Under the pieces are notes generated by a model. That model was not told the DNA's origin. It saw only the letters and a list, made by a program, of their open reading frames with translations, and searched no databases. A stretch of 64,000 bases of DNA from a virus: the UHGV virus genome UHGV-0036582. One strand, 5' to 3'. Each line of letters begins with the position of its first letter. Positions within the stretch are counted from its first letter, which is position 1. Shown here one piece after another: positions 1 through 64,000 of the stretch. The translations under genes and the position numbers were made by a program.

Positions 1-3000
1 GAAAACGTTGAGTGGTATAAAAATAACACTGACGCGATTAATGCTGCTGGCGACAAAGCTCGTGAGGCGGCGGCCAGTGCTGCCGCAGCAGCAGAAAGCG
101 CCAATACCGCTGGAGAAAAAGCCTCTCAAGCGTCTCAAAGTGCATCCGCTGCGGCATCTTCACAAAGTGCTGCAAGTGCGAGCGCAACTGCTGCGAAAAA
201 ATCTGAAACGAACGCACAAGCCGCAAAAGAAGCGGCAGCAGAATCAGCATCTGTAGCGTCGGCCAAAGCATCGGAGGCAGCAACATCTGCGTCCAGTGCC
301 TCTGCATCTAAGGATGCAGCCAAAGTATCAGAGACTAACGCTTCATCGAGCGCAAACGCGGCAGCATCATCGGCAACAGAAGCTGCAAATTCGTCTAAGG
401 CAGCAAAAACGTCAGAGACAAACGCAAAAGCATCTGAAACGGCCGCCGGGCAGAGTGCAAAGTCTGCAAACAGTTCGAAATCTGCGGCAGAAGCCTCAGC
501 AAGCGCAGCCTCAGCAAGCGCGGATAGTGCTTCATCAAGTGCAACAGCGGCAGGAAAATCTGCGGAAAGTGCATCGTCATCAGCGACAACAGCTACCACA
601 AAAGCGACAGAGGCGACGAGTCAGGCTACAGCTGCTAAAAATTCAGCATCGGCAGCAAAAGCCTCTGAAACAAATGCAAAGACTTCAGAAGACAATGCTG
701 CTTCCTCTAAGGCGGCAGCTGCTGAATCTGCAAGTTCTGCGTCTGCATCAGCTACCTCGGCATCCGCTTCAAAAGATGAGGCGACTAAACAGGCGTCAGC
801 AGCGAAGGGCAGTGCCACGACGGCATCCACAAAGGCAACAGAGGCGGCAGGCAGTGCGACGGCTGCATCTCAGAGCAAAACTGCTGCCGAATCTGCTGCG
901 ACCCGTGCAGAAGCAGCCGCAGATCGTGCTGAAGAGATTGCCGGTGCAGTTGCGATGGAAGACGCAACCCTTACAACTAAAGGTGTTGTGAAACTTAGTA
1001 GTGCGACAGATAGCACCAGTGAATCGCTGGCTGCAACGCCAAAGGCAGTTAAAGCAGCCAATGACAATGCGAATAGTAGGGTGCCATCTAACCGAAAAAT
1101 TAACGGGAAAGCACTGACTGCGGATATCACATTAACGCCGAAAGATATTGGCACTTTAAATTCAGTAACGATGTCTTTCTCTGGCGGGGCTGGGTGGTTC
1201 AAACTGGCTACGGTTACCATGCCACAAGCGAGTTCCATCGTTTACATTGCATTGATTGGTGGCGCTGGTTACAACGTCGGCTCCCCACAGCAGGCAGGCA
1301 TTTCAGAACTGGTTTTACGAGCAGGCAATGGAAACCCCAAAGGGATTACCGGAGCTTTGTGGAAGCGTACAGCCGTCGGATTAACGAATTTCGCCTGGAT
1401 CAACACATCCGGCGATAAATATGATATTTACGTTGAGATTGGCAATTATGCGACGAGTGTAAATATCCATTGGGACTGTACTGCAAATGCGTCAGTTTCT
1501 GTTTATACCTCGCCAACATATTCAGCGAGTAAGCCTTCCGGCGTTACCGATGGCGTTGTTTATACGGTGTATAGCTCACACCAGAAACCTACACCATCAG
1601 ATATTGGAGCACTGCCAACAACGGGAGGGACTATTTCAGGTCCGTTGGCTGTTACTGGTGGGATCACCGGAACATTAAATGGCAATGCAAGTACCGCTAC
1701 GAAATTGCAGACTGCAAGAACTATCGGCGGCGTGGCCTTCGATGGCTCTGCGAACATAAATTTGCCTGGTGTAAACACGGCAGGTAATCAGAGCACTACT
1801 GGTAATGCCGCAACCGCTACAAAACTTCAAACGGCAAGAACGATTGGTGGCGTTTCATTTAACGGAACTGCCAACATCGACTTGCCCGGAGTTAACAAAA
1901 CTGGCAACCAAAGCACCACAGGTAATGCTGCTACAGCTACTAAATTGCAGACTGCAAGAACCATCGGTGGTGTTAGCTTTGATGGCACTGCGAATATTAA
2001 TTTGCCAGGTGTAAATACGGCAGGTAATCAGAGCACTACAGGTAACGCGGCCACAGCGACCAAGTTGCAAACTGCTAGAACTATTAACGGGGTGTCGTTT
2101 AACGGCTCTGCGAATATTTCAATACCAACAATTACGTCCAGAGGACGCGTTACTGCGCTCACCGGTACAACACAAGGTGCTGCGACTGGATTGCAGATGT
2201 ACGAGGCATATAACAATGGCTACCCTTCGACTTACGGGAATGTGCTTCATCTTAAGGGCGCAACGGCCGTTGGTGAAGGTGAGTTGTTCATAGGTTGGAG
2301 CGGTACAAGTGGCGCTCATGCACCTGTACATGTACGTTCGCGACGAGATACGGATACATCCAGTTGGTCTGAATGGGCGCAAGTTTATACGTCCAAAGAC
2401 TCAATTCCAGGTGTTAATGCCACCGGTAATCAGAACACTACTGGCAACGCGGCAACCGCCACCAAATTGCAGACAGCGAGAAGAATTAACAATGTGGCTT
2501 TTGACGGCACGAAAGATATTACTCTAACGCCTGGTAATATCGGCGCTGCTGCTTCGTCTCAGGCATGGCTGAATACTGGCGATTCAGGACAATCATTATC
2601 CACATCGTCATTTATTACGCTGCTGCAAAATAACGGCGCATTCAATCAGCGTACATGGATTGCTCGCTGTTCGTGGGCTTATGCTAATAACGCCTCAATA
2701 CCGGATAGCGAAACAAAATGCGGCACTATTCCGCTTGCTGGCGCACTGATTGAAATAACCAGCTTTGGCATGACTAACTACACAATTAGGATCACCACCG
2801 CAACGACTACCAGCGTTTCCGGTGCAAAAGTAAACGCCGAATTTATTTACGTTTACAATGGGGATGGTTATTCGCCAGGCTGGCGCAGGCAGTACAATAC
2901 TAAAAACCTGCCGACGCCACTTGAGATAGGAACTTACAGCAAATCGGAGATTGACAATTTAAATAGGAATTTTCTCACATCGTCAAGACTTGAAGCTGGC

Positions 3001-3471
3001 TCGTTAGATGCAAACTTCCAGACGTTAACTTGTTATTATTTGCAAATATTCGACATTCAGACAACAACCGATAGTCCTAACATGTTCGTAAGTCCGATTG
3101 CTGGCTACAACATGGTTTTTCGTTCGACTTCATCCCGTCGATACAAGACGGATATCGAGTCTTTAGAGAACAAGTACGCGGACGAGCTGTTGAAACTTCG
3201 TCCTGTATGGTATCGCTCGACTTGTGAAAGGGACAGAAAGGACTGGGGACATTATGGCCTTATTGCAGAAGAAGTCGGAGAGATAGCACCGCAATATGTT
3301 CACTGGCGTCCTCTTACAGACGAAGATGATCCAAGTATAGCGTCTGATAATGGGATGGTTGCTGAAGGCGTGATGTATGACCGTCTGGTTGTTCCACTCA
3401 TTCACCATATTCAAAAACTGACAAAAAGGGTTGAGGAGCTTGAAGCGAAGTTAAATTCACCTGAAGAATAA
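1..3471 (+). CDS. Tail fibre protein, 5'-truncated by the window edge; Ala/Ser-rich N-terminal repeat region, internal 40-aa tandem repeats, C-terminal intramolecular-chaperone-like domain
   Basis: Frame 1 is open from base 1 to the stop at 3469-3471; the listed ORF 955..3471 is only its Met-initiated tail. N-terminal region is Ala/Ser/Thr/Lys-rich repeats. Five copies of GN(A/Q)(S/A)TATKLQTARTIGGV.F.G.ANI.LPGVN. C-terminus (YKTDIESLENKYADELLKLRPVWY...LEAKLNSPEE) resembles the self-cleaving chaperone domain of phage tail fibres and spikes. Confidence 0.8.
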   Translation, partial: ENVEWYKNNTDAINAAGDKAREAAASAAAAAESANTAGEKASQASQSASAAASSQSAASASATAAKKSETNAQAAKEAAAESASVASAKASEAATSASSASASKDAAKVSETNASSSANAAASSATEAANSSKAAKTSETNAKASETAAGQSAKSANSSKSAAEASASAASASADSASSSATAAGKSAESASSSATTATTKATEATSQATAAKNSASAAKASETNAKTSEDNAASSKAAAAESASSASASATSASASKDEATKQASAAKGSATTASTKATEAAGSATAASQSKTAAESAATRAEAAADRAEEIAGAVAMEDATLTTKGVVKLSSATDSTSESLAATPKAVKAANDNANSRVPSNRKINGKALTADITLTPKDIGTLNSVTMSFSGGAGWFKLATVTMPQASSIVYIALIGGAGYNVGSPQQAGISELVLRAGNGNPKGITGALWKRTAVGLTNFAWINTSGDKYDIYVEIGNYATSVNIHWDCTANASVSVYTSPTYSASKPSGVTDGVVYTVYSSHQKPTPSDIGALPTTGGTISGPLAVTGGITGTLNGNASTATKLQTARTIGGVAFDGSANINLPGVNTAGNQSTTGNAATATKLQTARTIGGVSFNGTANIDLPGVNKTGNQSTTGNAATATKLQTARTIGGVSFDGTANINLPGVNTAGNQSTTGNAATATKLQTARTINGVSFNGSANISIPTITSRGRVTALTGTTQGAATGLQMYEAYNNGYPSTYGNVLHLKGATAVGEGELFIGWSGTSGAHAPVHVRSRRDTDTSSWSEWAQVYTSKDSIPGVNATGNQNTTGNAATATKLQTARRINNVAFDGTKDITLTPGNIGAAASSQAWLNTGDSGQSLSTSSFITLLQNNGAFNQRTWIARCSWAYANNASIPDSETKCGTIPLAGALIEITSFGMTNYTIRITTATTTSVSGAKVNAEFIYVYNGDGYSPGWRRQYNTKNLPTPLEIGTYSKSEIDNLNRNFLTSSRLEAGSLDANFQTLTCYYLQIFDIQTTTDSPNMFVSPIAGYNMVFRSTSSRRYKTDIESLENKYADELLKLRPVWYRSTCERDRKDWGHYGLIAEEVGEIAPQYVHWRPLTDEDDPSIASDNGMVAEGVMYDRLVVPLIHHIQKLTKRVEELEAKLNSPEE
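1681..2160 (+). repeat. Four tandem 120-bp (40-codon) repeats inside the tail fibre gene, with a fifth diverged copy near 2444
   Basis: Repeat units begin at 1681, 1801, 1921 and 2041 (ggyaaygc..accgctac.aaa.tgca.actgc.agaac.at.gg.gg.gt); protein-level repeats GNQSTTGNAATATKLQTARTIGGVSF.GTANI.LPGVN. Confidence 0.85.
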
Positions 3472-3597
3472 ACAACCTCAACGAGAATTAGTTTAGAAAC
3501 AAGTTCTCATTAGTTTTTTAATATATATAGGTAAGTACACGCCTATTAATTGAGGGGTGAAATATGATATAAATCCGCCATCCCGATTTGGCTTTTC

Positions 3598-4892: not shown

Positions 4893-5043
4893 GCCTCAAC
4901 CCGCTGGTGTGCTTTTCTGCGATGCGGCTACACCGCTATACATCAGCCGTGATGATCTCATGACCGAAGAGACTGAAAGAGAGGTGCTTTTTCACAATAT
5001 GATTGGGGAGCGATTGTGTGGATGGGGCAGAAAAGTGCCATAA
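4813..5043 (+). CDS. o-spanin (Rz1-like) outer-membrane lipoprotein, overlapping the i-spanin gene
   Basis: ATG at 4813 inside ORF 4735..5043; signal peptide MKHLMSYGARMLLLFIMSCTISGC with a lipobox Cys; Pro-rich mature part; classic overlapped Rz/Rz1 layout. Confidence 0.65.
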   Translation: MKHLMSYGARMLLLFIMSCTISGCVIKPQPAGVLFCDAATPLYISRDDLMTEETEREVLFHNMIGERLCGWGRKVP

Positions 5044-5217
5044 CAAAAGTGGCGTTTTCTAACATAAAATTTGCATATTATTAGAGCACAAGGTAGATTT
5101 GATGCATGGATGTCAAGTAAATCATACCTTGTTTTAATAAATCGACGCATACTCGTAGCCTCTAAACCGACAAGGTCGCCGCTATGACATAAAGTTATTA
5201 CCGGCTAAGGTGGAAAC

Positions 5218-5616
5218 ATGCATACTGCACTTAACGCATCTCGTTCTATTCAGACGATAAGAGACTGTACCAAGATGATCGCATCGGTTCCGTTGCGGCA
5301 TTGGAATGACTCGCTCCAAATTCGTGAAATGAACAAACCGGGTATGCTTAAGGATCAGCGTTTCATCGTTAACCTTAAAAGTGACGTTGAAGAAGGCAAG
5401 TTTACCATCAAATTGTTTGCAGAAATGATGGTGCTCAACAATCGGTTACGTTTTCTTGTTAAGCCAGAAAAACAGTTTCCCGATGTTGTGCGTTGTGAAC
5501 AGGATGCTTTCTATGAGATTGAAAGCAAAATAGCTAAATTTATCAAAGATAAATACCGCGTAGATGTTAAAATAGCGAAACTGGATTCATCTACGGATAT
5601 GCGGCTTGCTAACTAA
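5218..5616 (+). CDS. Hypothetical protein
   Basis: 132-aa ORF, no recognisable motif; stop abuts the next ORF start (TAAATG). Confidence 0.5.
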   Translation: MHTALNASRSIQTIRDCTKMIASVPLRHWNDSLQIREMNKPGMLKDQRFIVNLKSDVEEGKFTIKLFAEMMVLNNRLRFLVKPEKQFPDVVRCEQDAFYEIESKIAKFIKDKYRVDVKIAKLDSSTDMRLAN

Positions 5617-6393
5617 ATGTCACCATCATTCATAGCAGAGTATTCAAAAGTACTGTCTGGTTTCCCTGAATGTGAAGCAAGAGAGAAAATCAGAGTTGGC
5701 TACATGGTTAACTCTGATTTTTCTGTTTTACGGCTCACAGAGTGGTCCTTGATCGGGTCTAATTATGATTACTGTTTGACAGTGTCATTTGTAGGCGACC
5801 CTGATGCAGATTGGCTTCAAGAACATGCAATGGATCTTGACGAGCAGGGGTATTCAGAAGCAGAGATAGTTCATAGTGTTCGTGAATTAGTTGGTGATGA
5901 GCAAGAAGATGATGACGGCATTCAGATCGCCAGGTTCGTCTACAAACGATTCCAGTTTCGCTCACAAAAAGGCTCTCATCTTGGGGTCCAGATTAAAGGG
6001 GCATTTGTAACCCCTTCAAAGGAACAAAAGGGACTTGCTAGAAGAGTTTACAATTTCCTTCTCAATTGGCATGACCATGTGGTATGTGATGACCATCAGA
6101 CGGTTTACGGTGCCAGAATTTGGGCGGTCGGTATGCTTCTGGTCGGGCGTGTCCAAATCTATGACAATTTAAACAAAGAATTTATAGATGTCCTTGTTGA
6201 AGGTGGTATTGGGCAGAATGGCGTCAAACCGTGGGACGCGCTGCTATTGAGCAGCGAGGCCCAGTTACGTCACTGGAACCCTATGGCCGTCAGCATAGAC
6301 CCATCTAGTCAGATTCTCGCCATCATCTCCAAAGAAGACCGTCACATTGAAGTGGGCGTTACAACTTTTGACGCCAGGTCTACCAACCATTAA
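5617..6393 (+). CDS. Hypothetical protein
   Basis: 258-aa ORF translationally coupled to the preceding ORF; followed by a terminator. Confidence 0.5.
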   Translation: MSPSFIAEYSKVLSGFPECEAREKIRVGYMVNSDFSVLRLTEWSLIGSNYDYCLTVSFVGDPDADWLQEHAMDLDEQGYSEAEIVHSVRELVGDEQEDDDGIQIARFVYKRFQFRSQKGSHLGVQIKGAFVTPSKEQKGLARRVYNFLLNWHDHVVCDDHQTVYGARIWAVGMLLVGRVQIYDNLNKEFIDVLVEGGIGQNGVKPWDALLLSSEAQLRHWNPMAVSIDPSSQILAIISKEDRHIEVGVTTFDARSTNH

Positions 6394-6397
6394 TTCC

Positions 6398-6548: not shown

Positions 6549-7217
6549 ATGACCAAGATCTTTGTGGTTGGCGGCACAAAGGGCGGGCCTGGCAAATCCA
6601 CCGTTGCCCAGCAAATTGCCGTTTGCCTGAAAGTCAAAAAGAAGAAGAAGGTTTATATCACTGATATAGATATTCAGCGCACGACAACAAGCTGGTGTGA
6701 AGACCGTCGACAGAACGAAGACCTTGAGCTGATTCCTTTTGCATACGTTCAGGATGACATCATTAAGCACCTAAAATCGCTTCAGGGTAGAGCTGAGTTT
6801 GTAGTGGTAGATGCTGGTGGCTTTGACTCCGAAATTCAGCGACAAGCGATGCTGATGGCCGACGTTATCATTATCCCGCTGCGTCCTAAGCGTCGTGATT
6901 TGAAATCTTTACGTGACATCGATCCTATTATCGACAATGTTCGTAATGTAAACGATAAAGTGAAGGTCCGCGCGGTCATGAACCAGTGCCCGGCTTTGCC
7001 ATCACAAGTGTCTCGCATTTTGGCGGCTAAAGAGATTGTCGAGACGTTTGGCATCGAGTCTGCGCCAGTCAATTTATATAACCGCAACGTCTATGATGAT
7101 GCGGAAGAGTCTGGTCGTTCTATCTTTGAAATGACCGGTAGCGAGCGCGACAAAAAGGCGGAAGCCGAGTTTGAAGAATTTGTAGATTATCTGTTGAGTC
7201 TGGAGGAAGAAGAATAA
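6549..7217 (+). CDS. parA: ParA/MinD-family partition ATPase
   Basis: Deviant Walker A motif KGGPGKST in MTKIFVVGGTKGGPGKSTVAQQIA; 222 aa; followed by a small overlapping ORF as in type Ib partition operons. Confidence 0.8.
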   Translation: MTKIFVVGGTKGGPGKSTVAQQIAVCLKVKKKKKVYITDIDIQRTTTSWCEDRRQNEDLELIPFAYVQDDIIKHLKSLQGRAEFVVVDAGGFDSEIQRQAMLMADVIIIPLRPKRRDLKSLRDIDPIIDNVRNVNDKVKVRAVMNQCPALPSQVSRILAAKEIVETFGIESAPVNLYNRNVYDDAEESGRSIFEMTGSERDKKAEAEFEEFVDYLLSLEEEE

Positions 7218-7576
7218 TGTCCATGAAAATGGGTGACCTAGCAAAGCGCAAAGAGTCTGATGCACCGGCTAAGAACACAACTCCTTTGCGCCAACCAGTC
7301 AGACCACAGGGACGCCCGACTCGTGGCAAAGAGAAAATTAAAAGCCGCACAATGTCACTGGAGGACGAATACTTCGAACTGCTGGAGATGATGAAGTTCA
7401 TCCCTCGCTTCGAGAAGTTCACTCGTTCTGACGTGATTCGAGCAGCCATTTTCCATCTGGCAGAGAAGTCACCGCAGGAAATCGAGGACATCGTGAAATT
7501 GAATGAGGCGATCACCGCTGCCGATGTCACGATGCGTACCGATGAAATCAAACGAGAGTTGATGAAGAAAGGTTAA
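7217..7576 (+). CDS. Small DNA-binding partition partner, ribbon-helix-helix-like (ParG-like)
   Basis: 119 aa, start overlaps the parA stop; basic N-terminus; C-terminal segment RTMSLEDEYFELLEMMK...RSDVIRAAIFHLAEK has a strand-helix-helix pattern. Confidence 0.45.
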   Translation: MSMKMGDLAKRKESDAPAKNTTPLRQPVRPQGRPTRGKEKIKSRTMSLEDEYFELLEMMKFIPRFEKFTRSDVIRAAIFHLAEKSPQEIEDIVKLNEAITAADVTMRTDEIKRELMKKG

Positions 7577-7579
7577 AAA

Positions 7580-7614
7580 TCATGCATTGGCGTAATGTAC
7601 GCGCCAATGCATGA
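7580..7614. terminator. 13-bp inverted repeat between convergent genes, possible bidirectional terminator
   Basis: tcatgcattggcg / cgccaatgcatga arms with a 9-nt loop; no clear T-tract. Confidence 0.4.
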
Positions 7615-7628
7615 GTACAATGTCAGTT

Positions 7629-8396
7629 TTATGCCGCGCTAACACTATGTTCAGTCCTAACCACTCCAACCTTCACAAAAGGGCTACCGTAGCTTGGTGG
7701 CTTCTTGATTAATTTGCCAACATACAGTTTTCTAATATGCTCATCGGCTATTCTGCCAACAAATTCATAACGTTTTGTGTCGGGGCCAAGAGCTATATCC
7801 CTTGTAAAGTACTGCTGAGAACCGGCTTTGACCCAGCATTCAATCTGATAAACTTCCATTATCAGCCCACCATATGTAGCGTAGGCATATTTGAGATTCT
7901 CGTCTCTTGGAACCTTTGCCCATACGCCACGCGTAGCTTCATATAATGCCAGAGCGGACATTCCTGACTTGTAGGTGCTGTTTAGCAGGAAGGCAAGACC
8001 GGCGTGCTCAGGAGCAATTTCAGTTTCCTCTTGCAGCACTAAGTGATGGTAGGCGTCCAGTGATATTCTGCCCATCATGGAACCACTTCCTCGTACCTTA
8101 TTCGTAAGCTCTCCGACCCCCATAAGGTCGATGCATGTCGCCTCAACAAGTTTGGCTGTGGTTTCATCCATACCATGACGAAGTATATCTATGCCTAATT
8201 TTTTATTAGCCAAAAGTTCTTTGATCCGCATGGATTTGGGAGAGTCATCGGGATACTTGATGTGATCGAGACAACGAGTCGATTTGCCTTTTCCTATGTA
8301 AAACGGTCTTTTCATCTTGTCTTCTGTATCATAGAGACAGTAAACATAGTATTTAGCCTTATCCAATGATCTCGCGTATACCGATAAATCGTCCAT
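7629..8396 (-). CDS. GIY-YIG nuclease-domain protein with an uncharacterised C-terminal domain
   Basis: N-terminus YYVYCLYDTEDKMKRPFYIGKGKSTRCLDH matches the GIY...YIG...R...H pattern; about 150 aa of unrecognised C-terminal sequence. Confidence 0.6.
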   Translation of the reverse strand: MDDLSVYARSLDKAKYYVYCLYDTEDKMKRPFYIGKGKSTRCLDHIKYPDDSPKSMRIKELLANKKLGIDILRHGMDETTAKLVEATCIDLMGVGELTNKVRGSGSMMGRISLDAYHHLVLQEETEIAPEHAGLAFLLNSTYKSGMSALALYEATRGVWAKVPRDENLKYAYATYGGLIMEVYQIECWVKAGSQQYFTRDIALGPDTKRYEFVGRIADEHIRKLYVGKLIKKPPSYGSPFVKVGVVRTEHSVSAA

Positions 8397-8504
8397 TATT
8401 GCATCTCTTAGCTACTGACTAATGCGTTCTATTTTACACATAAGTTTTTAATCAATTTAACAGGCTCAAAGTGTAGAGCTTCTGGGCGTCTAAGACGACA
8501 AGTT

Positions 8505-17342: not shown

Positions 17343-17417
17343 GATGGTGTAGCTCAGCGGTAGAGCAGTTGGCTGTTAACCAACTGGTCGGTGGTTCGAA
17401 TCCACCCACCATCGCCA
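17343..17417 (+). tRNA. tRNA-Asn (anticodon GTT)
   Basis: Hand-folded cloverleaf: acceptor gatggtg/caccatc, D-arm gctcagcggtagagc, anticodon stem gttgg/ccaac with loop ctGTTaa, T-arm ggtggttcgaatccacc, encoded CCA. Confidence 0.8.
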
Positions 17418-17422
17418 ATTTA

Positions 17423-17509
17423 GGGGAGTTAGTCCGTAGGGGCAGCGGGGTAGACTGTAAATCTACTGTCATTGCGACTCGGGTGGTTCGACTCCATCAC
17501 TCCCCACCA
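17423..17509 (+). tRNA. tRNA-Tyr (anticodon GTA), long variable arm
   Basis: Acceptor ggggagt/actcccc, anticodon stem gtaga/tctac with loop ctGTAaa, long variable arm, T-loop ttcgact, encoded CCA. Confidence 0.7.
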
Positions 17510-17513
17510 AATT

Positions 17514-17589
17514 GCCGGTTTAGCTCAGTTGGTAGAGCGCCTGCCTTGTAAGCAGGATGTCAGCGGTTCGAGTCCGCTAACCGGCACCA
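17514..17589 (+). tRNA. tRNA-Thr (anticodon TGT)
   Basis: Acceptor gccggtt/aaccggc, D-arm gctcagttggtagagc, anticodon stem cctgc/gcagg with loop ctTGTaa, T-arm agcggttcgagtccgct, CCA. Confidence 0.8.
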
Positions 17590-17814
17590 ATACAACGATA
17601 AGATCATTACGGTTAATCGTCGTTCATGTGCACAATGACTGGTCGAAAGGTAGTGATCTTACCGTTGTGGTGGATTCGCAGACTGATGCGATAGCTTTCT
17701 TGGATGTTAGGGAAATGCGGCCGCAAATCTTCCCTTTCGCGAGCGGTGATCGTCCGTAGTCCTAATTGGCTGCACCGTATGCCGGAGATTCAGTACCGGC
17801 CACCACAACGGCCG

Positions 17815-17901
17815 GAGAGTAGGGAGCATGGTGCTCAAGCGGTCTTGAAAACCGTCCCATTGCGCAAGCGATGATGGTTCGATTCCATTACTCTCCGCCA
17901 G
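17815..17901 (+). tRNA. tRNA-Ser (anticodon TGA), long variable arm
   Basis: Acceptor ggagagt/actctcc, anticodon loop ctTGAaa, long variable arm, T-arm gatggttcgattccatt, CCA; some stems rely on G-U pairs, so less certain. Confidence 0.6.
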
Positions 17902-34383: not shown

Positions 34384-34434
34384 CTCGTTATTATCACACA
34401 CAAGAAAACAATTTGTTAAAAGGTTAAGTTAATT

Positions 34435-35259
34435 ATGCCCAACCACATTACAAACGAAATCCGAGTCATAGGTGGTACAAATAAACAACGCTTAGATTTC
34501 ATACGTGCCATAACTAACAAAAAAGGTCTAATTGACTTTAATACCATTTGCAGACGTCCGAAAAGTATAGAAATGGAAGAAAACAATCATATCAGGCGCA
34601 TGGCCTCTGCAATGGCGGGCGAAACAGTTTACGACCACATGTTCGGTGAATTAAAGACTCCAGAACAGGTCGAATTAGCTATGCGTGAATCAGGAATGAC
34701 ACGCAAGGAAATTCGCAAAATCAAAGAGCAGGCTCTTATGCGGCTTGAGAATTATCGTCGCTATGGCTATTACTCATGGTTTGACTGGTCGCGAGCTAAT
34801 TGGGGAACAAAATGGAATGCCTACAACATCGAAATGCCCGTAAAACGTATCCCTACACGTATTAAGTACGGCCATAATTTCCGCCATACACACGTTCGAG
34901 CATATGCAAAACGAATCTATAAAAAACGTCTTGCAAGACATGCCGCAACTGGTGGTGAGTTGGTGATTCGCTTTGAAACAGCCTGGTCTATGCCAAAACC
35001 AATTTATCAAGCGATGGCTAGAAAGTTCCCGCACCTTGAGTTTGTAATACGTTATGCAGACGAAGACTTCGGCAATAACTGCGGATTCATTTTACTTCGC
35101 AACGGCAAATGGGAATATGACTACATTGCACCGGCGAATAACAAACAATCGTCAGAAGAAAAAATCAAATGGCGCAAGTTCGCCTTTGAGTTATGTTGTC
35201 CTGGTATCACTCCACAAGAATACGGTCTAAATGAAGAATACGAATACGCCGGATATTAA
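34435..35259 (+). CDS. Hypothetical protein (Trp-rich motif SWFDWSRANWGTKWNA)
   Basis: 274-aa ORF in a slightly AT-richer accessory block; no recognisable motif. Confidence 0.45.
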   Translation: MPNHITNEIRVIGGTNKQRLDFIRAITNKKGLIDFNTICRRPKSIEMEENNHIRRMASAMAGETVYDHMFGELKTPEQVELAMRESGMTRKEIRKIKEQALMRLENYRRYGYYSWFDWSRANWGTKWNAYNIEMPVKRIPTRIKYGHNFRHTHVRAYAKRIYKKRLARHAATGGELVIRFETAWSMPKPIYQAMARKFPHLEFVIRYADEDFGNNCGFILLRNGKWEYDYIAPANNKQSSEEKIKWRKFAFELCCPGITPQEYGLNEEYEYAGY

Positions 35260-35306
35260 AAAAAATTGTCATTTAGCTTTACGCATGAAGCATAGAGGTT
35301 AATAAG

Positions 35307-36047
35307 ATGAAAAGAAAAATTGAAGAACCAAAAACGACTCTTAATAAACATGGGGAAAAAATTCAAACACATCCAGCGTTCGGTCTTGTGAAAACAAGCC
35401 GTGTTAGCACAACTGGCATTCGCCTATTTGATTCAGAACTGGAACATAGAGACTATATTGAAATAGGCGTTTACGAGGCGGAACTGTCCTTAGACAATGA
35501 ACGAACCCGCCCACAAAGAAGTTGCAATAGACGGCCTTTAGTTGAAATTAGACTTAGCCAGGCACAATGGGCTGCTATGGTTAGCAGTTTTGGAGTGGGC
35601 GAAGGTGTGCCATGCACTATTTCATATAAAACCATTGGAGACTCAATTAGAGTTCATGATATTGCCGAGCAAAAAAGTATTCGGCAAAAATTCAACGATC
35701 AAATAAAGGCCGCTACGAATAGTGAGATTGATCGACTTAATCAGCAAGTTTCAGAGCTAGGTGAACTTGTGAAAAAAGGAAGAGCTGGAAAACGTGACCT
35801 TGAAGAACTATATAGAAAACTAGCATCTGCTGTAGCTAACCTTCCTGAAAATCTGTGCTTTGCTACCGAATTAATGCAGGAACAAATGGATGAAATTGTC
35901 TCTTCTGGAAAGGCGGAGATTGAGGCGTATGTTGCGGGCACGGTTATGCGTAAAGGGTTAGCAGCATTAGGCACAGAATCATGCATTAACGATGATCCTA
36001 CTGTCTCTATCACCAAAATGGAAAGCGGTAAAGAATTACTGCCATAA
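35307..36047 (+). CDS. Hypothetical protein
   Basis: 246-aa ORF. Confidence 0.45.
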   Translation: MKRKIEEPKTTLNKHGEKIQTHPAFGLVKTSRVSTTGIRLFDSELEHRDYIEIGVYEAELSLDNERTRPQRSCNRRPLVEIRLSQAQWAAMVSSFGVGEGVPCTISYKTIGDSIRVHDIAEQKSIRQKFNDQIKAATNSEIDRLNQQVSELGELVKKGRAGKRDLEELYRKLASAVANLPENLCFATELMQEQMDEIVSSGKAEIEAYVAGTVMRKGLAALGTESCINDDPTVSITKMESGKELLP

Positions 36048-36114
36048 ATGCATCTGAGGTACTGACAATGCTTTTAATTCAACCTGGGTTCGGTTTAAAG
36101 ATAAAAAAGGGCAT

Positions 36115-36456
36115 ATGTTTGGTGAGCGAGATTCCAAACGAAAAATTCTGTCTATTCGATTACCATTTATCACCATTCATTGGTTAAACAGAGAGTCAAC
36201 CGATTATTGGTATAAATGCGCAAGAGCAGCATTTAACGACCCTGACTGGTTTGTAGAAAATCACCACGCGGTTCGTCAGGCAAAAAGAAAGGCTAATACG
36301 ACATATATGAAGGCATATCAGGATGCCTGGGAAGAACATCGTGGCCGATACCAAAAAAACATTGAAAAACTTGAATCAGAAAATATGGACCTAAGAAGAA
36401 AACTCGGTGAAGCACGTCGAGACATCGAAGCATATAAACGTCTTGTATCGGAGTGA
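36115..36456 (+). CDS. Hypothetical protein with C-terminal coiled coil
   Basis: 113-aa ORF. Confidence 0.4.
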   Translation: MFGERDSKRKILSIRLPFITIHWLNRESTDYWYKCARAAFNDPDWFVENHHAVRQAKRKANTTYMKAYQDAWEEHRGRYQKNIEKLESENMDLRRKLGEARRDIEAYKRLVSE

Positions 36457-36517
36457 ATATATCTTTGCTTTATTTTTTCAAAGGTGATTATTTTCCTATT
36501 TATAAGGAGAAGTAAAC

Positions 36518-52238: not shown

Positions 52239-52882
52239 TGGATTACCGGATTGGGATCACTGGTGCTCAGGGCAGTGGGAAAACAACCCTGGCTAAATAT
52301 ATCGACAAACATTACGGAATCCCTTACGTGGATGCTGGTGTCGGAAGTTTGATGAGCCGCCTCGGTGTTCGAGTAGGTGATTCTATGCCTCTATATGAGC
52401 GGCTTCAGATTCAAATGGAAATAGCAAAGCATATAGAGCTACTTACGCGTGGTGCTGAAGGCTTTGTTATCGATCGCACACCTGCTGATGTTATGGCCTA
52501 CACGTTGGATTTGGTCGGCCATACAAATGAAGATCGGTGTATTGAGTTAGCCCTCGATATCGAAAAGTTTTGCCACAAAACTGCTATTTCAAACTTTAAC
52601 GCCATTGCTGGCCTACGCCCGGGGGTCGCTCTCTCAGAGCGAGATTACTTGCGGTCACAACGAGCATCATTAGACCGTCTGTATGTCGCTCGTATTGATG
52701 CGTTGATGTGCGGGGAACTGACAAAAATTCACCTGCATCCGCAAAGGGGAGATCTGCAAACCTTCGTCGTTTCCAACCGGTATCGCACAGTTGAAGCAAG
52801 AGCCAGATCAGTGATGAGAATGCTAGATAACGCGGTAGAAAAGATAGAAAACCGGTTCTGTGGCCGAGTGACCGTTCATTAG
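52238..52882 (+). CDS. P-loop nucleotide kinase (deoxynucleoside monophosphate kinase-like)
   Basis: Walker A GITGAQGSGKTT at the N-terminus; 214 aa; lies in the nucleotide-metabolism block. Confidence 0.5.
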   Translation: MDYRIGITGAQGSGKTTLAKYIDKHYGIPYVDAGVGSLMSRLGVRVGDSMPLYERLQIQMEIAKHIELLTRGAEGFVIDRTPADVMAYTLDLVGHTNEDRCIELALDIEKFCHKTAISNFNAIAGLRPGVALSERDYLRSQRASLDRLYVARIDALMCGELTKIHLHPQRGDLQTFVVSNRYRTVEARARSVMRMLDNAVEKIENRFCGRVTVH

Positions 52883-52943
52883 AAATTGTTCGCCTCTTCG
52901 ACATTGCGACAATAAAACTCTCAAAATGGGTTAAGGATAAAAA

Positions 52944-53363
52944 ATGTTTAGTGAAATGTTGCTTGAAGATGAACTGGATCGGAAAACAACAGAGGCTTTG
53001 ATTCGTGTAGCGGACGAACATTCCCGGTCGCTTATGAGCGATCGAGAGGCTCGTCTGGCTATTCGTGCCATATTCGAAACTGCGCAGGGGCTTGTTGGTA
53101 CACAAGTGGGTGAAGCCATTAACATCGCCATGTCTCAGTTCAGTGAAGGCAGTAAAAAGTCTCTGTTTCCTATGCATTTGATGCTGGCTGGTGGCACGGT
53201 GCTTTATATCTCTGTTTGTCTGGATAGCAACCAAATCAATATTCTCAACACTGTGTCAGGTAAGTGGAAAGATCCGATTGTCTGTGAAACCAGTGAAGAA
53301 ACTTTGAAAAAAGCGGCTCAATTTGTACGTAGCGCACTACTTAAGGGCGCTAAGAAGTTGTAA
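52944..53363 (+). CDS. Hypothetical protein
   Basis: 139-aa ORF. Confidence 0.45.
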   Translation: MFSEMLLEDELDRKTTEALIRVADEHSRSLMSDREARLAIRAIFETAQGLVGTQVGEAINIAMSQFSEGSKKSLFPMHLMLAGGTVLYISVCLDSNQINILNTVSGKWKDPIVCETSEETLKKAAQFVRSALLKGAKKL

Positions 53364-53372
53364 GGAGTTCTG

Positions 53373-53930
53373 ATGACAACGATTGTTGCAGGCATCGATA
53401 TCGAGTCTACGGGACTGGATTTCCTTGCTGGTCATAAAATTATTGAAATCGCAATTACCCGCTATGAACTGGAGACACAGAGACATATTGATAGTCTGGA
53501 GATGCGTTTTAACCCTCGCAGAAACATAGATCCGAAAGCTCAAGCCGTTCATGGCATTTCATTGGAACAGCTCGCAGCTGAACCTTTGTTGTCAAATCAT
53601 GCCAGCGAAATTGGCGCTTATATGGGGGCATGTAGTGTGTGGGTTGCTCATAACGGCGAAGCATTTGATATACCATTTATTCGACACGAGTTTTCAGGGT
53701 ATGGAGTAAGACTGCCAGAAGTTCCTGTTATAGATACTATGTTATCGGGATTGTGGGCCACAGAAGACGGTAAACGTCCCCGCCTTGAAGAGTTGGCCTT
53801 CTCTCTTGGCTATATATACGATCATGCCAAAGCACATAGTGCCTTATATGACACAAACTTAATGATGCAATGCTTCTTTAAGGCACGTAATAAGTACGGA
53901 TTTTTTAAATTACCCTCTGAAATTGTGTAA
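53373..53930 (+). CDS. DnaQ-like 3'-5' exonuclease (DEDDh family), candidate proofreading subunit
   Basis: Exo I GIDIESTGL, Exo II WVAHNGEAFDIPF, Exo III HSALYD. Confidence 0.75.
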   Translation: MTTIVAGIDIESTGLDFLAGHKIIEIAITRYELETQRHIDSLEMRFNPRRNIDPKAQAVHGISLEQLAAEPLLSNHASEIGAYMGACSVWVAHNGEAFDIPFIRHEFSGYGVRLPEVPVIDTMLSGLWATEDGKRPRLEELAFSLGYIYDHAKAHSALYDTNLMMQCFFKARNKYGFFKLPSEIV

Positions 53931-53934
53931 AACA

Positions 53935-53972
53935 AAAGCCTACTTTAAAAAGTTTAAAGTAGGCTTTCTTTT
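53935..53972 (+). terminator. Rho-independent terminator
   Basis: aaagcctactttaaa-aag-tttaaagtaggcttt then ctttt. Confidence 0.7.
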
Positions 53973-54088
53973 AAAGAACAGTCGCCTTTCAATCATTTCC
54001 TGCCTGTATTTAATACTTTTCCGCCTGATAGGTTTAGTCAAAATGCAGCCATCGAAACGCAAATGTAACCAAACAGAAGGAGACTTAC

Positions 54089-54898
54089 ATGAGTTCGGTT
54101 GAAAATGTAATGACAAATGATGATCTGGACGAGCTGACAGCCATGTTGCAATCACTTGATGAACCAGTAAAAAAAGCTGCACAGGTTGAAAATACTGATG
54201 ATATTGACGATCTGCTGCTCGGCCTAGATGCTGGCGTAGCCATGAGTTCTGATGATGTTGCCGAAGAACTGTTCAATGAAGAAAAAGCAGGTGATTTCAG
54301 CTCTGCTTTAAATGAGTTGGAGTTAGCGCATGAGCCTATAAACGTAATTAACGCTGAAAGTGTTGAAGCTGCCGAAAACGAGCCAGAACAATTGGGATTT
54401 ATTGAGGTTGAAGAGTGTGTTGAGGTTAATGATGAATTAAAAGTTCAACAGTCAAATGATAGCAATACAAATAAAAAAGCTCGTACTGCAAGAGGTCCTC
54501 GTTTTACTTTAAGTGATAAAGATGATTCGTTTTTCAATAAAGCGGGCTTAGAAAAAGATATTTTCTTAGACGCTTACGATAACGCGCCTGTCAAAGCAAA
54601 GGATAAGATATTAAACCTTCTTAATTGGTTTAGCGGAGGTCCAGATATTAGTGTTTACACGGTAATTTCCATGAGACACCTTCTCACAGAAAAGAAGGCT
54701 ACAAGTAATAGTATTAAGATTGCTTTAATGAGCAATCCAGAAAAACCGTATCCGCTTAATACTGCGTCAACTCAGGCTGGGCAAATGATGGCTGTATTTC
54801 CAGCGACAGGAATTGCCGTTAGAGACGGTGGAAATCTAACATTGAACGAAGAATCACCGATCGTTAAGAAGTTTGTCGCGGAGTACACTATTGGATGA
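54089..54898 (+). CDS. Highly acidic protein of unknown function
   Basis: 269 aa; N-terminal half dominated by Asp/Glu (DDLDELTAMLQSLDE...DDIDDLLLGLD...); lies upstream of the Dam-like methyltransferase. Confidence 0.5.
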   Translation: MSSVENVMTNDDLDELTAMLQSLDEPVKKAAQVENTDDIDDLLLGLDAGVAMSSDDVAEELFNEEKAGDFSSALNELELAHEPINVINAESVEAAENEPEQLGFIEVEECVEVNDELKVQQSNDSNTNKKARTARGPRFTLSDKDDSFFNKAGLEKDIFLDAYDNAPVKAKDKILNLLNWFSGGPDISVYTVISMRHLLTEKKATSNSIKIALMSNPEKPYPLNTASTQAGQMMAVFPATGIAVRDGGNLTLNEESPIVKKFVAEYTIG

Positions 54899-55081
54899 CG
54901 TTCCCCTACTTAAAATAAAGCCCATAGAGAGCTTTATAGTACTGGGTAAGCCAATCACATACCCAGCACTACAAAAACGCGCCAGAGAGCTTCTCGTTTG
55001 CATTTCTGGCGCGTTTTATTTGATTGCCAGACATAAAATCAAATGCAAAAATAGGTATATACTTACCTATCGAGAAAGAAG

Positions 55082-55675
55082 ATGATTGCAGCCGAAAAAA
55101 TCAAACAGCGAAAGCGCGACAACTCTCTTCGTGACCTCTGGAGAACACCTGACTGGCTGTTTTCTGCCATTCAACGTTATCTTGGAGTGACATTTGATGT
55201 TGACGTTGCCTGCAACAAGGACAATGCAAAGCTGCCTAATTTCATAGGCGTTGAGCGTGATGCTTTGAAATCTGAATGGGGACAGCCAGGTACAATTGCC
55301 TTCCTAAATCCACCCTACTCCAAAATCTCCCCCTGGATTGATGCGGCTATACGTGAGCAGGCTCGCGGAGTTACAACAGTGATGCTAATTCCTCAATCCC
55401 TAGATACAAAGTGGTATGAGCGTGCAACAGAGTGTGCGAATGAGACGATTATTCTGTCTGGTGGCCGCGTAGCGTTTGTCGAGCCTGACGTAAATCTGGG
55501 TCAGGTAGAAGTAAACATCAACCCAGGTGGCAGTATGCTCGTTGTTTTTCGAGGATTCTGTCAGGACGCTGGGCACTCTATAAGCAAGATCCCTTTGGAC
55601 GTCATGAAAAGTCTGGGAGGGTATGATCCTGCGAATGTGATCAGGAAAAAAAGACCATCAAAGAAGGCTGCTTAG
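55082..55675 (+). CDS. Phage Dam-type DNA N6-adenine methyltransferase
   Basis: Catalytic motif NPPY in IAFLNPPYSKISPWIDAAIRE; 197 aa. Confidence 0.7.
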   Translation: MIAAEKIKQRKRDNSLRDLWRTPDWLFSAIQRYLGVTFDVDVACNKDNAKLPNFIGVERDALKSEWGQPGTIAFLNPPYSKISPWIDAAIREQARGVTTVMLIPQSLDTKWYERATECANETIILSGGRVAFVEPDVNLGQVEVNINPGGSMLVVFRGFCQDAGHSISKIPLDVMKSLGGYDPANVIRKKRPSKKAA

Positions 55676-58199: not shown

Positions 58200-58625
58200 A
58201 TGTTAGGTTTCTTCAAAAAGAAAACTCGTAAAGCTGTTATCGAAGTCAAAAAAATGGAGAACCGTGATGCGGTTGAGGCCACCGTGTGGGGCGCGTACAT
58301 GATCTCCTATGCCGACGGCACATGTGACGCAAAAGAAATTGCCATTCTTGAGAAGACAATTGCAGCTCTGCCTGCGTTTTCTCCGTTTGCTGGTGAAATT
58401 GCCCAAATGAGCGCCAATATCCGTGCTCGTTACGAAGCGTCCCCTCGTTCTGCTAATGCACAGGCTATTCGTGAGCTGTCTGATATTGCGGGTACTCCAG
58501 AGGCGGTCGATGTTCTGTGTCTGTGCCTTGATATTGCCGATCAGGACGGCATTGGTGAACAAGAAGAGCAGGCACTGAAAAAGATCGCCCAGGCGCTTCA
58601 GTTGTCACTGGATGCTTATCTCTAA
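58200..58625 (+). CDS. TerB-like domain protein
   Basis: 141 aa; helical protein with paired acidic motifs (SYADGTCDAKE and DIADQDGIGEQEE) resembling the TerB fold; conserved leader aaaaggaaaacacATG. Confidence 0.4.
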   Translation: MLGFFKKKTRKAVIEVKKMENRDAVEATVWGAYMISYADGTCDAKEIAILEKTIAALPAFSPFAGEIAQMSANIRARYEASPRSANAQAIRELSDIAGTPEAVDVLCLCLDIADQDGIGEQEEQALKKIAQALQLSLDAYL

Positions 58626-58783
58626 TGCTTGAGAGATTCCGGCTTGTGATCGTCATTGCTCTTCTGGTGATGGCGGTGTTGGTGGATTTTACGGGAAAGA
58701 TGATGTCTGTCATTTCTGATGGCGTCCTCATTGGTTTGGCGATCTACTTCGCTTATCCGTTAGTTCGTAAAGCAAAGTGTTAA
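58625..58783 (+). CDS. Small two-TM membrane protein translationally coupled to the TerB-like gene
   Basis: 52-aa ORF below the ORF-track cutoff; start overlaps the upstream stop (TAATG); MLERFRLVIVIALLVMAVLVDF...VLIGLAIYFAYPLV. Confidence 0.35.
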   Translation: MLERFRLVIVIALLVMAVLVDFTGKMMSVISDGVLIGLAIYFAYPLVRKAKC

Positions 58784-60508: not shown

Positions 60509-60550
60509 TAATTGCACCATTAAACAAATCTTTTCTTAATGGTGCAATTA
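60509..60550 (+). promoter_or_regulatory. Perfect 15-bp-stem hairpin covering the translation-initiation region of the methyltransferase gene
   Basis: taattgcaccattaa ... ttaatggtgcaatta; the right arm ends at the A of the ATG at 60550. Confidence 0.5.
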
Positions 60551-62235
60551 TGAATACAGCTCTTTCCATCATCGACGATGCCAACTCAAACACTGCTATC
60601 GATTATCGTCAGGAAATGAACGTCATCCACGAAATTGTGGCCGAGTGCGAGAAGGAGATCGCCTTCATGTATCAGGTTCACGACTTCGTTTATGGAGACG
60701 AACGCCACAACATGATTAATCGCCTGCTGCAACTGAACCACCGACCAGATGAAGAACGCTCACGTTTGAATCGAGCTTGGCTGGATAAAGTCGATCTGGA
60801 ATGGGTGAAACAGAATATTTGGGCCGAGTACTGGAGGAAGGTCACGGATATGACTAACGTTCTGCTGATCATGCCAGCTTCCCGTCGCGACGAGTGGCGT
60901 GAGCAGTTTATCGAGGGTAAGCAGGAAGTCATCAAAACTGACAGAACCGGCTATCAGATGAAGGTAAAAGAGTTCGTTGGTGTACCGGAGTTCAAAGCAG
61001 AAACGGTCATACCCACGATGCTTAATTTGCTGAATGACAGGCACAAATATCTCTCTGAGCGCGTGTATGGCTTGTTTAAGGCGCTGAGTCCTGCGCACAA
61101 GACAAATAAGACAAACGGTTTCAGCGAACGTCTGATAATCGCTGACTGCATTTCTGATTTCTGGCGGGACAGCGTTAGTGTGAACTATCGCAAAGAGGAC
61201 TATATCGACGATCTGCGTGTCTTGCTTCATTTCTTCGCGCACAAAGAATTTATTACCATCAACCGCACTGCTGAGGTGCTATCAGCTGCGTATCGGGCAA
61301 ACGACTGCCAGACCGGTGACTGGATGAACGTCGATGGAAATCTGATGCGCGTGAAGATGTTCAAGAACGGCAACGTTCACTTTGAAATACATCCTGACGT
61401 GGCCTGGAAGTTGAATGAGGTGCTGGCTTACAGTATGCCTGCTGCAATCCCCGCGCCATGTCGCACCGCGCCAAAAACACGGGCACCAAAGCAGTTCGGG
61501 TTAATCCAGAAGACGATCTCCGTGCCGGTTCGCACTGCGCTTCGTGACGGGCGATTGAGCAAAGACAAAGGCGTATGGTACTTCTCTGATTCAGCTCTCC
61601 AGAAGTCGCAGGTGGAAGAGCTTGAGCGCACACTGAGCTTCATTGGCGGCGTGCAGGAGAAAAAGCACTGGCAGTTCCCGTATGACATCGTCCATACGCT
61701 AAATACGATTGTGGCTACCGGTTTAATACCGGATACAAAATCACACCAGTTCTACCCTACCCCACGCTTGATTGCTGAGTACGTTGCCAGAGCCACTGAA
61801 TTGAAGTCTGGTGAGAAGCTGCTGGAGCCTCAAGCCGGACGTGGGGATCTTCTGGCCTATATTAACGCCGATCTGGAAGATGTTACCTGCATAGAAATCG
61901 CACCTCTCTTCGCTGATATCCTGCGTGGAAAAGGGTATACGAACACGATTTGCTGCGACTTCATAAAGTGGTCTGAGGACAACGTAGGTTATCAGTTCGA
62001 CAAAATCGTTATGAACCCGCCGTATTCGCTTGGTCGTCATAGAGAGCACACGCTGGCTGCGCTGGGGCATCTGAAAGTCGGCGGGCGTCTTGTAGCAGTA
62101 TTGCCGGGCACTGCGCCAATACTGGACTGGATGACGATGGATAATTACGTTTATGCCAGAGGGAAGTCGTTTACCAACGAGTTTGAAGACACAGGGATCA
62201 CAGTCAGCGTATACGTTTTCAAACGCGTTAAATGA
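60550..62235 (+). CDS. Orphan DNA methyltransferase (N6-adenine type) fused to a large N-terminal domain of unknown function
   Basis: C-terminal 150 aa carry QFYPTPRLIAEYV, SAM-binding LLEPQAGRGDLL and catalytic IVMNPPY; the N-terminal 400 aa or so have no recognisable motif. Confidence 0.7.
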   Translation: MNTALSIIDDANSNTAIDYRQEMNVIHEIVAECEKEIAFMYQVHDFVYGDERHNMINRLLQLNHRPDEERSRLNRAWLDKVDLEWVKQNIWAEYWRKVTDMTNVLLIMPASRRDEWREQFIEGKQEVIKTDRTGYQMKVKEFVGVPEFKAETVIPTMLNLLNDRHKYLSERVYGLFKALSPAHKTNKTNGFSERLIIADCISDFWRDSVSVNYRKEDYIDDLRVLLHFFAHKEFITINRTAEVLSAAYRANDCQTGDWMNVDGNLMRVKMFKNGNVHFEIHPDVAWKLNEVLAYSMPAAIPAPCRTAPKTRAPKQFGLIQKTISVPVRTALRDGRLSKDKGVWYFSDSALQKSQVEELERTLSFIGGVQEKKHWQFPYDIVHTLNTIVATGLIPDTKSHQFYPTPRLIAEYVARATELKSGEKLLEPQAGRGDLLAYINADLEDVTCIEIAPLFADILRGKGYTNTICCDFIKWSEDNVGYQFDKIVMNPPYSLGRHREHTLAALGHLKVGGRLVAVLPGTAPILDWMTMDNYVYARGKSFTNEFEDTGITVSVYVFKRVK

Positions 62236-62296: not shown

Positions 62297-63001
62297 ATGA
62301 ACAACCTCCAGTTAGAGCATTTTAACGTCACAGGCCATTCTGATTTTCCTTTCAAGTTTACATTGAAAGGTTATGCAGAGGATGCGGTAGGCCAGATCAT
62401 TATTGATAAAGGCATCGTTAAGTTTGAGGGGGATTTTGATGAATCCGCGAAAACATTCATAGACTTCGTTGCCAAACGTTGGAGCGAGCAATGGAAAAAC
62501 CTGGAAAAGCGCGCCAATGAGTTTGATCGGTTCATGGATGCAATGGATACAGCAAAAGAGGCTCTTGATGCCGGGACTCCGTTAGATCTGGAGTCACTTT
62601 TCAACGGCGAAGTGGCCTCTGCGATGTTTGCCACCATGTTCGCGGGTGAGTTCGTCCGCAGCGGTGCCAAAAACTACCTTGAGCTGGATTACAACGTCCC
62701 TGCAATTGGCGATTTCGTCGTTACCATCCAACGCAAAGAAGGTAAGACGCCAGGTGAACGCGTCGCAGAGCTTGAGGCCGTTGTGGATCAGCGTAACGGA
62801 GAGTGTGACCGTTTGATCAACGAGCTTCATGCACTTCGGGAAGAAAGAATATGTGCGGGTAGCAATACACGTAATGCAGCGGATATCTACTTCCAGTTAG
62901 TTGAGGAATGCCAGATTCCACCAGGTGGCTCTCTTGTCGATTACGTCAGACATTTAATGGCGGAAGTTAACTCCAGCCATAAAGATGGTGAGGTGCGCTG
63001 A
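62297..63001 (+). CDS. Hypothetical protein
   Basis: 234-aa ORF with leader gagaaaaacacATG. Confidence 0.45.
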   Translation: MNNLQLEHFNVTGHSDFPFKFTLKGYAEDAVGQIIIDKGIVKFEGDFDESAKTFIDFVAKRWSEQWKNLEKRANEFDRFMDAMDTAKEALDAGTPLDLESLFNGEVASAMFATMFAGEFVRSGAKNYLELDYNVPAIGDFVVTIQRKEGKTPGERVAELEAVVDQRNGECDRLINELHALREERICAGSNTRNAADIYFQLVEECQIPPGGSLVDYVRHLMAEVNSSHKDGEVR

Positions 63002-63381: not shown

Positions 63382-63500
63382 ACGCTACAAATCCTTCGGC
63401 ATGAATAAATAAAGGCCATAAGTTGTGGCCTTAAATAAATTGTTTTCTACCTTTTCTTATTTGTGAAAATAACCACAACTAGAAAACAACGGAGTTAAGA

Positions 63501-64000
63501 ATGTCTAGTATTTCCGAAGCTCATATGTTCGCCGCTGGCGCTCATGGTGGCGTTGGTCAGAAAAGAAAATATACCGGCGAAGACTACATCAACCACCCGG
63601 TTGCTGTCCGAGAGATTGTTGCATTGCATGACGGAACCGTGGAGATGCAAATCGCGGCGCTTCTGCATGATGTGGTCGAAGACACCCATGTAACCATAGA
63701 GATGGTTCGTGATCACTTCGGTGAGCGCGTAGCTGAAATGGTTCAGGCTCTGACCAACATTGCAAGGCCAGAAGACGGCAATCGAATACAGCGTTTCATC
63801 ATCAATGTCCGGGAGCTGGAGCAAAATCTCGACATGCAGACGCGCATGATCAAGCTGGCTGACCTGCTCGACAATACCTCTTCTATCGTGAGTCGCGATC
63901 CCGAGTTTTCAGCTGTCTACCTCGCAGAGAAAGAACTGATGCTGGACGTACTCTTTCACGGCAAAGAGATTGGTGCCAATGCTGATGTTGTCGAGTACAT
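63501..64000 (+). CDS. HD-domain hydrolase of the RelA/SpoT type (small alarmone hydrolase-like), 3'-truncated by the window edge
   Basis: Not in the ORF track because it runs off the window. ATG at 63501; translation MSSISEAHMFAAGAHGGVGQKRKYTGEDYINHPVAVREIVALHDGTVEMQIAALLHDVVEDT...KLADLLDN matches the HD pyrophosphohydrolase signature. Confidence 0.6.
   Translation, partial: MSSISEAHMFAAGAHGGVGQKRKYTGEDYINHPVAVREIVALHDGTVEMQIAALLHDVVEDTHVTIEMVRDHFGERVAEMVQALTNIARPEDGNRIQRFIINVRELEQNLDMQTRMIKLADLLDNTSSIVSRDPEFSAVYLAEKELMLDVLFHGKEIGANADVVEY

Follow-up and report, generated by a model that had tools for sequence, protein, structure and literature searches.

An alarmone hydrolase gene on an SSU5-like phage-plasmid of Escherichia coli is predicted to be an orthologue of PaSpo

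The gene that ends the window (the whole 64,000-nt stretch of viral DNA analysed here, UHGV-0036582) most probably encodes a metal-dependent, PaSpo-type small alarmone hydrolase (SAH) that is carried as accessory cargo by an E. coli SSU5-like phage-plasmid and undoes the products of toxSAS toxins, a reading to which we assign a probability of roughly 0.9. Phage alarmone hydrolases are a published counter to CapRel and other toxSAS toxins, which themselves serve in abortive-infection defence. The gene family, the phage-plasmid location and the rescue experiment have already been published for a 92%-identical orthologue (PaSpo, 2020), and the window holds one more copy of PaSpo, the best-used representative, and adds no new biology. 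What the assignment to the SAHs and to PaSpo does offer is help with the annotation of SSU5-like phage-plasmids: these occur commonly in clinical Enterobacteriaceae, and the RefSeq label of this protein is generic.

The gene occupies 63501..64000 on the plus strand, where the window end cuts it after the 5' 166 of its 213 codons. Translation of 63501-63998 gives 166 codons free of stops, and the peptide that begins at 63501 reads MSSISEAHMFAAGAHGGVGQKRKYTGEDYINHPVAVREIVALHDGTVEMQIAALLHDVVEDTHV...MIKLADLLDNTSS... and contains the motifs H..HP..VA, YINHPVAV, LLHDVVEDT and KLADLLDN. Every motif of the HD signature quoted in the original prediction (H...HP..VA...LLHDVVEDT...KLADLLDN) is therefore present. 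The first ATG is the one at 63501, the closest in-frame stop upstream is the TAG at 63480, and a GGAG ribosome-binding site, read directly from the sequence and identical in SSU5, lies 6 nt 5' of the ATG (63491..63494, plus strand). Minus-strand open reading frames over the same bases are shadows of the hydrolase gene. That the gene extends past the window, as had been proposed, is confirmed by a copy on the E. coli plasmid pG749_2, which is base-identical across the window part and encodes a protein of 213 aa; the final 47 codons, beyond the window end, were taken from the pG749_2 record. A dN/dS of 0.13 between the hydrolase gene and its SSU5 copy indicates purifying selection on the gene.

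Matches of the protein to known families are far above chance level. Pfam HD_4 (PF13328) covers residues 8-135 of the window part with E=6.2e-19 and 68.7 bits (gathering score 27.2), and the PHROGs family phrog_990 ('metal-dependent phosphohydrolase') matches at E=1.2e-43. NCBIfam TIGR00691 (spoT_relA) matches at E=7e-25 over model positions 1-123, which correspond to the hydrolase domain alone; with no more than that domain present, the score of 87 bits stays far below the cut-off of 499 set for the full-length family. The PDB gave 22 matches at E<=1e-3, every one of them an RSH hydrolase domain or a small alarmone hydrolase; they include SpoT (7qps, with the lowest E at 1.7e-13), Rel (5xnx, 1vj7 and 6s2t), MESH1 (3nr1 and 5vxa), the (p)ppApp hydrolase 7smg and the bacterial SAHs 6yvc, 6z3n and 6z3o. 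When the 213-aa SSU5 protein was scanned at full length, HD_4/HD was found and no further domain. The predicted protein thus consists of a hydrolase domain only, and its length is within the range of about 150-220 aa that defines an SAH. HD_4, TIGR00691 and the RSH-type structures agree with the proposal of a RelA/SpoT-type HD hydrolase, and a 213-aa single-domain protein on an SSU5-like phage-plasmid fits the further proposal that the enzyme is stand-alone and belongs to a phage.

The same searches bear on whether the protein might be some other HD phosphohydrolase unrelated to alarmones, such as a dNTP triphosphohydrolase, a nucleotidase or a MESH1-like NADPH phosphatase, which we consider extremely improbable. 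The generic Pfam HD model also matches (4.2e-06), but its 27.5 bits are well below the 68.7 bits of HD_4, and the matches in NCBIfam are limited to spoT_relA and SpoT. No dGTPase/SAMHD1-type family was found in Pfam or NCBIfam at E<=1, and none of the 22 PDB chains is a dNTPase or of the SAMHD1 type. The published phenotype of the orthologue, neutralisation of toxSAS (PMC7229694), also argues against a function apart from alarmones. Since RSH-type families and structures alone match, a dNTPase or other HD subfamily was ruled out. An NADPH side activity would be compatible with the alarmone reading because MESH1 too neutralises toxSAS. Of the two findings that the original prediction had named as contrary to it, a missing HD dyad and a dNTPase-type subfamily, neither was seen: the dyad is present, and there was no match of the dNTPase type.

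Residue roles were assigned by a HMMER alignment to the MESH1 chain 3nr1_A, whose index equals the published MESH1 numbering minus one at every motif, and were read against the published roles of MESH1 residues (10.1101/325266). On this alignment, all listed MESH1 active-site residues are conserved in the window protein, and their codons all lie inside the window on the plus strand. The predicted base contacts R22 and K23 (MESH1 R24 and K25) are encoded at 63564..63569 and would touch the nucleobase. The codon of H32, a predicted metal ligand, is at 63594..63596, with that of Y29 just upstream. The HD metal-binding dyad H56-D57 and the ED pair E60-D61 fall together in LLHDVVEDT at 63666..63683, and the stretch from D121, the fourth metal ligand, to N125 falls in KLADLLDN at 63861..63875. 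H32, H56, D57 and D121 correspond to the metal ligands H35, H61, D62 and D122 of MESH1, E60 and D61 to its catalytic pair E65 and D66, and Y29 and N125 to its phosphate contacts Y32 and N126.

These correspondences suggest how the enzyme may work. H32, H56, D57 and D121 would bind the catalytic metal (Mn2+ in those relatives that have been characterised), while E60, D61 and N125 would position water and the 3'-phosphate, and R22, K23 and Y29 would grip the purine nucleotide. [quoted passage not shown] In this scheme the product of a toxSAS enzyme (CapRel, PhRel, PhRel2, FaRel or FaRel2), be it (pp)pApp, (p)ppGpp or a pyrophosphorylated tRNA CCA end, would be undone with the toxin itself left untouched, and the element would thereby be freed from toxSAS-type abortive infection. 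That (p)ppGpp or (p)ppApp loses its 3'-pyrophosphate in an Mn2+-dependent reaction is thus a prediction drawn from the conserved active site together with the phenotype of the orthologue. In ATfaRel, mutation of the Asp homologous to a RelSeq active-site residue led to loss of antitoxin function, and with the equivalent Asp mutated in ATfaRel and RelSeq, antitoxin and hydrolase activity were abolished (PMC7229694).

The closest characterised relative is the SSU5 protein. Jimmy et al. (2020) sorted the RSH proteins into subfamilies, among them 'Salmonella phage SSU5 SAH (PaSpo)', a stand-alone hydrolase encoded by a phage (PMC7229694). SSU5 has one single place that matches the hydrolase protein, and PaSpo is therefore SSU5_099 (YP_006906731.1), a 213-aa protein with 153 of 166 residues (92%) identical to the window part and 87% identity at full length. 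This identity of 92% to a protein that Jimmy et al. classed as PaSpo serves as a proxy, and it supports placing the window protein, as a predicted SAH, in the PaSpo subfamily. The two genes share their length, the upstream intergenic element, the ribosome-binding site, the overlapping downstream open reading frame and the setting of an SSU5-type phage-plasmid. They differ in 13 substitutions within the window part, none of them at an active-site residue, and in their hosts, which are E. coli for the window and Salmonella for SSU5; the toxSAS phenotype is known from the SSU5 allele.

That phenotype is broad. PaSpo neutralised all five validated toxSAS, CapRel, PhRel2, FaRel2, PhRel and FaRel (PMC7229694 Table 1), in line with the expectation that the phage enzyme would be suited to neutralising toxic alarmone synthetases. 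It has since been co-expressed as a detoxifier to purify CapRel-SJ46 (PMC9712102), for the expression of PhRel2 (10.1101/2021.04.30.441581) and for FaRel2, in which case the authors state that PaSpo removes the tRNA modification (10.1101/2024.07.05.602228). In the available text of the PhRel2 study, in vitro de-pyrophosphorylation of tRNA is described with ATfaRel and MESH1 and not with PaSpo (10.1101/2021.04.30.441581). We found no report in the literature of a substrate preference of PaSpo among ppGpp, ppApp and tRNA-PP.

A further question is what the element gains from such an enzyme. During infection or plasmid-prophage carriage, the hydrolase would allow escape from toxSAS-type abortive infection, damping of the host stringent response, or both. 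Jimmy et al. suggested that hydrolase-encoding phages could bypass alarmone-based defence (PMC7229694), and our literature search found no paper showing that a phage or phage-plasmid depends on its hydrolase gene during infection or lysogeny. It is possible, if on balance doubtful, that the main purpose of the same enzyme is hydrolysis of host (p)ppGpp, so that the RelA/SpoT stringent response is suppressed and a growth state favouring phage or plasmid replication is maintained. The enzyme has the fold and active site of the (p)ppGpp hydrolases SpoT, Rel and MESH1, alarmone accumulation upon infection has been discussed by Jimmy et al. as a barrier to phages (PMC7229694), and a 2026 preprint reports, in its title, that phages are restricted through the stringent response. 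What has been published for the orthologue, however, is neutralisation of toxSAS (PMC7229694), and the two roles could well coexist and are not separated by the sequence.

An alternative benefit would fall to the lysogen, in which a hydrolase made from the plasmid-prophage might make the host broadly immune to the (p)ppApp-synthetase toxins that competitors deliver, such as Tas1-type T6SS effectors and exported synthetases. The relatives in the PDB include the (p)ppApp hydrolase 7smg and the SAHs 6z3n, 6z3o and 6yvc, hydrolysis of (p)ppApp by SAHs is described in the available text of PMC7644958, and the orthologue neutralises FaRel, which produces (pp)pApp (PMC7229694). The location of the gene is also consistent with carriage, as the hydrolase was found in 44 of 5,426 complete E. 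coli genomes and all 46 of its copies were plasmid-borne, with none on a chromosome. The gene nonetheless sits in a co-directional block of small accessory genes of an early type (Ead/Ea22-, Eaa- and Eae-like), and we regard protection of the lysogen as rather unlikely to be its purpose. Suppression of the stringent response and protection of the lysogen both call for the same chemistry as the neutralisation of toxSAS products, which is the reading that we prefer.

Other relatives of the protein are known under various names. WP_021533175.1, found on E. coli phage-plasmids such as pG749_2 and pECOH89-like plasmids, is encoded by a sequence base-identical over the shared 498 nt, and its generic RefSeq name, 'HD domain-containing protein', hides the assignment to the SAHs and to PaSpo. 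Human and Drosophila MESH1 (3nr1, 5vxa and 3nqw) share the HD_4 fold and every active-site residue, and MESH1 expressed in E. coli also neutralises toxSAS (PMC7229694); they differ in being distant (E about 1e-12 over query residues 4-135) and in being metazoan cytosolic enzymes with NADPH phosphatase activity. The long RSH proteins SpoT and Rel (7qps, 5xnx and 1vj7) are the top sequence matches among solved structures, but the window protein has no synthetase, TGS, ACT or other regulatory domain. Protein-level matches to the hydrolase were obtained in 249 phage records, including phiKZ-like, Erwinia and Rhizobium phages, and related phage SAH genes are now routinely annotated as such (e.g., PMC12846349).

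SAHs of the ATfaRel type are likewise single-domain RSH hydrolases and neutralise all tested toxSAS by degrading the toxin product (PMC7229694). ATfaRel belongs to another SAH subfamily, however, and is an antitoxin that adjoins its own toxSAS, whereas the window gene has no toxSAS nearby. This comparison bears on the idea that a toxSAS toxin-antitoxin module resides on the element and has the window gene as its type IV antitoxin, as in C. marina, where ATfaRel is an SAH antitoxin beside its own toxSAS (PMC7229694). Directly downstream of the hydrolase gene is an open reading frame of 180 aa (6759-7301 of the pG749_2 sequence L003), which starts about 140 nt past the window end and shares 4 nt (ATGA) with the stop of the hydrolase gene, as toxin-antitoxin pairs typically do. 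The product of this open reading frame, however, has no match in Pfam or PADLOC and matches PHROG families of unknown function alone, including the C-terminal part of phrog_3451. Some Enterobacter plasmids in PLSDB, moreover, carry it without the hydrolase, and the SSU5 enzyme was described as a stand-alone phage SAH (PMC7229694). The annotation of the near-identical pG749_2 contains no RelA/SpoT synthetase, none was found among the domains of the neighbours, and PADLOC returned no match for the hydrolase or the 180-aa product. Given that the neighbours and the pG749_2 annotation lack a synthetase and that PADLOC was silent, a role as antitoxin of a local toxSAS was rejected, and we consider such a role very unlikely.

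The hydrolase and the translationally coupled 180-aa product might instead work together in counter-defence as a module of two proteins, with the 180-aa partner targeting, sensing or regulating something beyond the reach of the hydrolase, for example the toxSAS protein itself. We consider this idea speculative and quite unlikely. Obligate pairing is weakened by the Enterobacter plasmids that have the 180-aa frame alone and by phage PDP46, where a hydrolase homologue that is 50% identical has different neighbours.

The two genes do behave as a cassette in comparisons among related elements. The window at 60000-64000 matches Salmonella phage SSU5 and the Escherichia phages Cyrano, CMS-2020a and PhiR41_1. 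Homology to the three Escherichia phages ends at about 63476, 24 nt before the ATG, and resumes past the 180-aa open reading frame, which indicates that Cyrano, CMS-2020a and PhiR41_1 lack the cassette of hydrolase and 180-aa frame. They are otherwise about 96-98% identical to the window element, and the hydrolase gene is thus dispensable, as these near-identical phages are without it and no more than 44 of the 5,426 complete E. coli genomes have it. Nature therefore offers near-isogenic elements that either carry or lack the gene, which makes its role in infection or carriage testable. No foreign-DNA signature of the cassette was seen in base composition, its G+C of 0.46-0.51 being like that of the flanks.

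The cassette follows a conserved intergenic slot at 63409..63477, defined by comparison with SSU5 and Cyrano, which comprises a G+C-rich hairpin (63412-63432), a T-rich tract and the sequence TGTGA-N6-CCACA (63462-63477). The element is kept in SSU5 and Cyrano whichever gene comes next. TGTGA-N6-CCACA is a CRP-like half-palindrome, and the point at which cargo is swapped lies right at the end of the element. Scans of the upstream region with promoter and terminator consensus sequences found sites no more numerous than in shuffled sequence.

The window is collinear with pG749_2, a 109.9-kb circular E. coli plasmid, over 57.8 of its 64 kb at 91-98.6% identity. The genes of pG749_2 include those for tail, tape-measure, capsid, portal and terminase proteins, ParB, RepB, DnaE, RecA and NrdAB, as well as a tRNA cluster. 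This collinearity and the combination of phage and plasmid genes indicate that the window derives from an SSU5-like phage-plasmid. Four segments of the window (about 1956-3530, 4929-6397, 7575-8503 and 34429-36498) gave no megablast match to pG749_2, and these are probably either variable cargo or genes that have diverged, such as those for tail fibres. At least 80% of the cassette of hydrolase and 180-aa frame is present in 123 PLSDB plasmids, which come from Escherichia, Salmonella, Enterobacter and Citrobacter; nearly all of the matching plasmids are typed as non-mobilizable, and those listed are about 104-127 kb. An earlier count of 236 plasmid records overestimates the carriers of the hydrolase because the query had included 120 nt of intergenic sequence common to non-carriers.

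The hydrolase gene belongs to a co-directional run of small accessory genes that includes a TciA/TciB-like pair, a 561-aa protein with DUF4942 and N6-methyltransferase regions, and Ead/Ea22-like and Eaa-like open reading frames. The TciA/TciB-like pair consists of adjacent frames of 141 aa and 52 aa at 58200-58783 (plus strand), for which relatives have the annotations P1 TciA-like 'tellurite/colicin resistance protein' and TciB-like DUF3927 protein. The 561-aa protein, encoded at 60550-62235 (plus strand), has an N-terminal DUF4942 (1.2e-20) and a C-terminal region resembling N6-adenine methyltransferases, and it matches phrog_6263 'DNA methyltransferase' and PADLOC mad2 (6.7e-15). A role as an orphan anti-restriction methylase is possible for this protein. 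The Ead/Ea22-like frame at 62297-63001 (plus strand) encodes 234 aa, of which the N-terminal 13-101 match the N-terminal part of phrog_3451. Since this product fits the N-terminal part of phrog_3451 and that of the frame after the hydrolase gene fits the C-terminal part, phrog_3451 seems to be a family built on a fused or mosaic protein.

Elsewhere on the element, four tRNA genes (Asn-GTT, Tyr-GTA, Thr-TGT and Ser-TGA) lie at window positions 17343-17900 on the plus strand. Phage tRNAs have been discussed in the literature as a counter to tRNA-targeting defences, and the cluster could be relevant alongside a hydrolase that repairs tRNA. Past the window end, pG749_2 carries a full methionyl-tRNA synthetase gene (metG) and ApbC at 52295-55586. 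At 71766-78439 of pG749_2, which by collinearity is roughly 45-52 kb of the window, there are genes for a DfrA51-type DHFR, thymidylate synthase and NrdAB.
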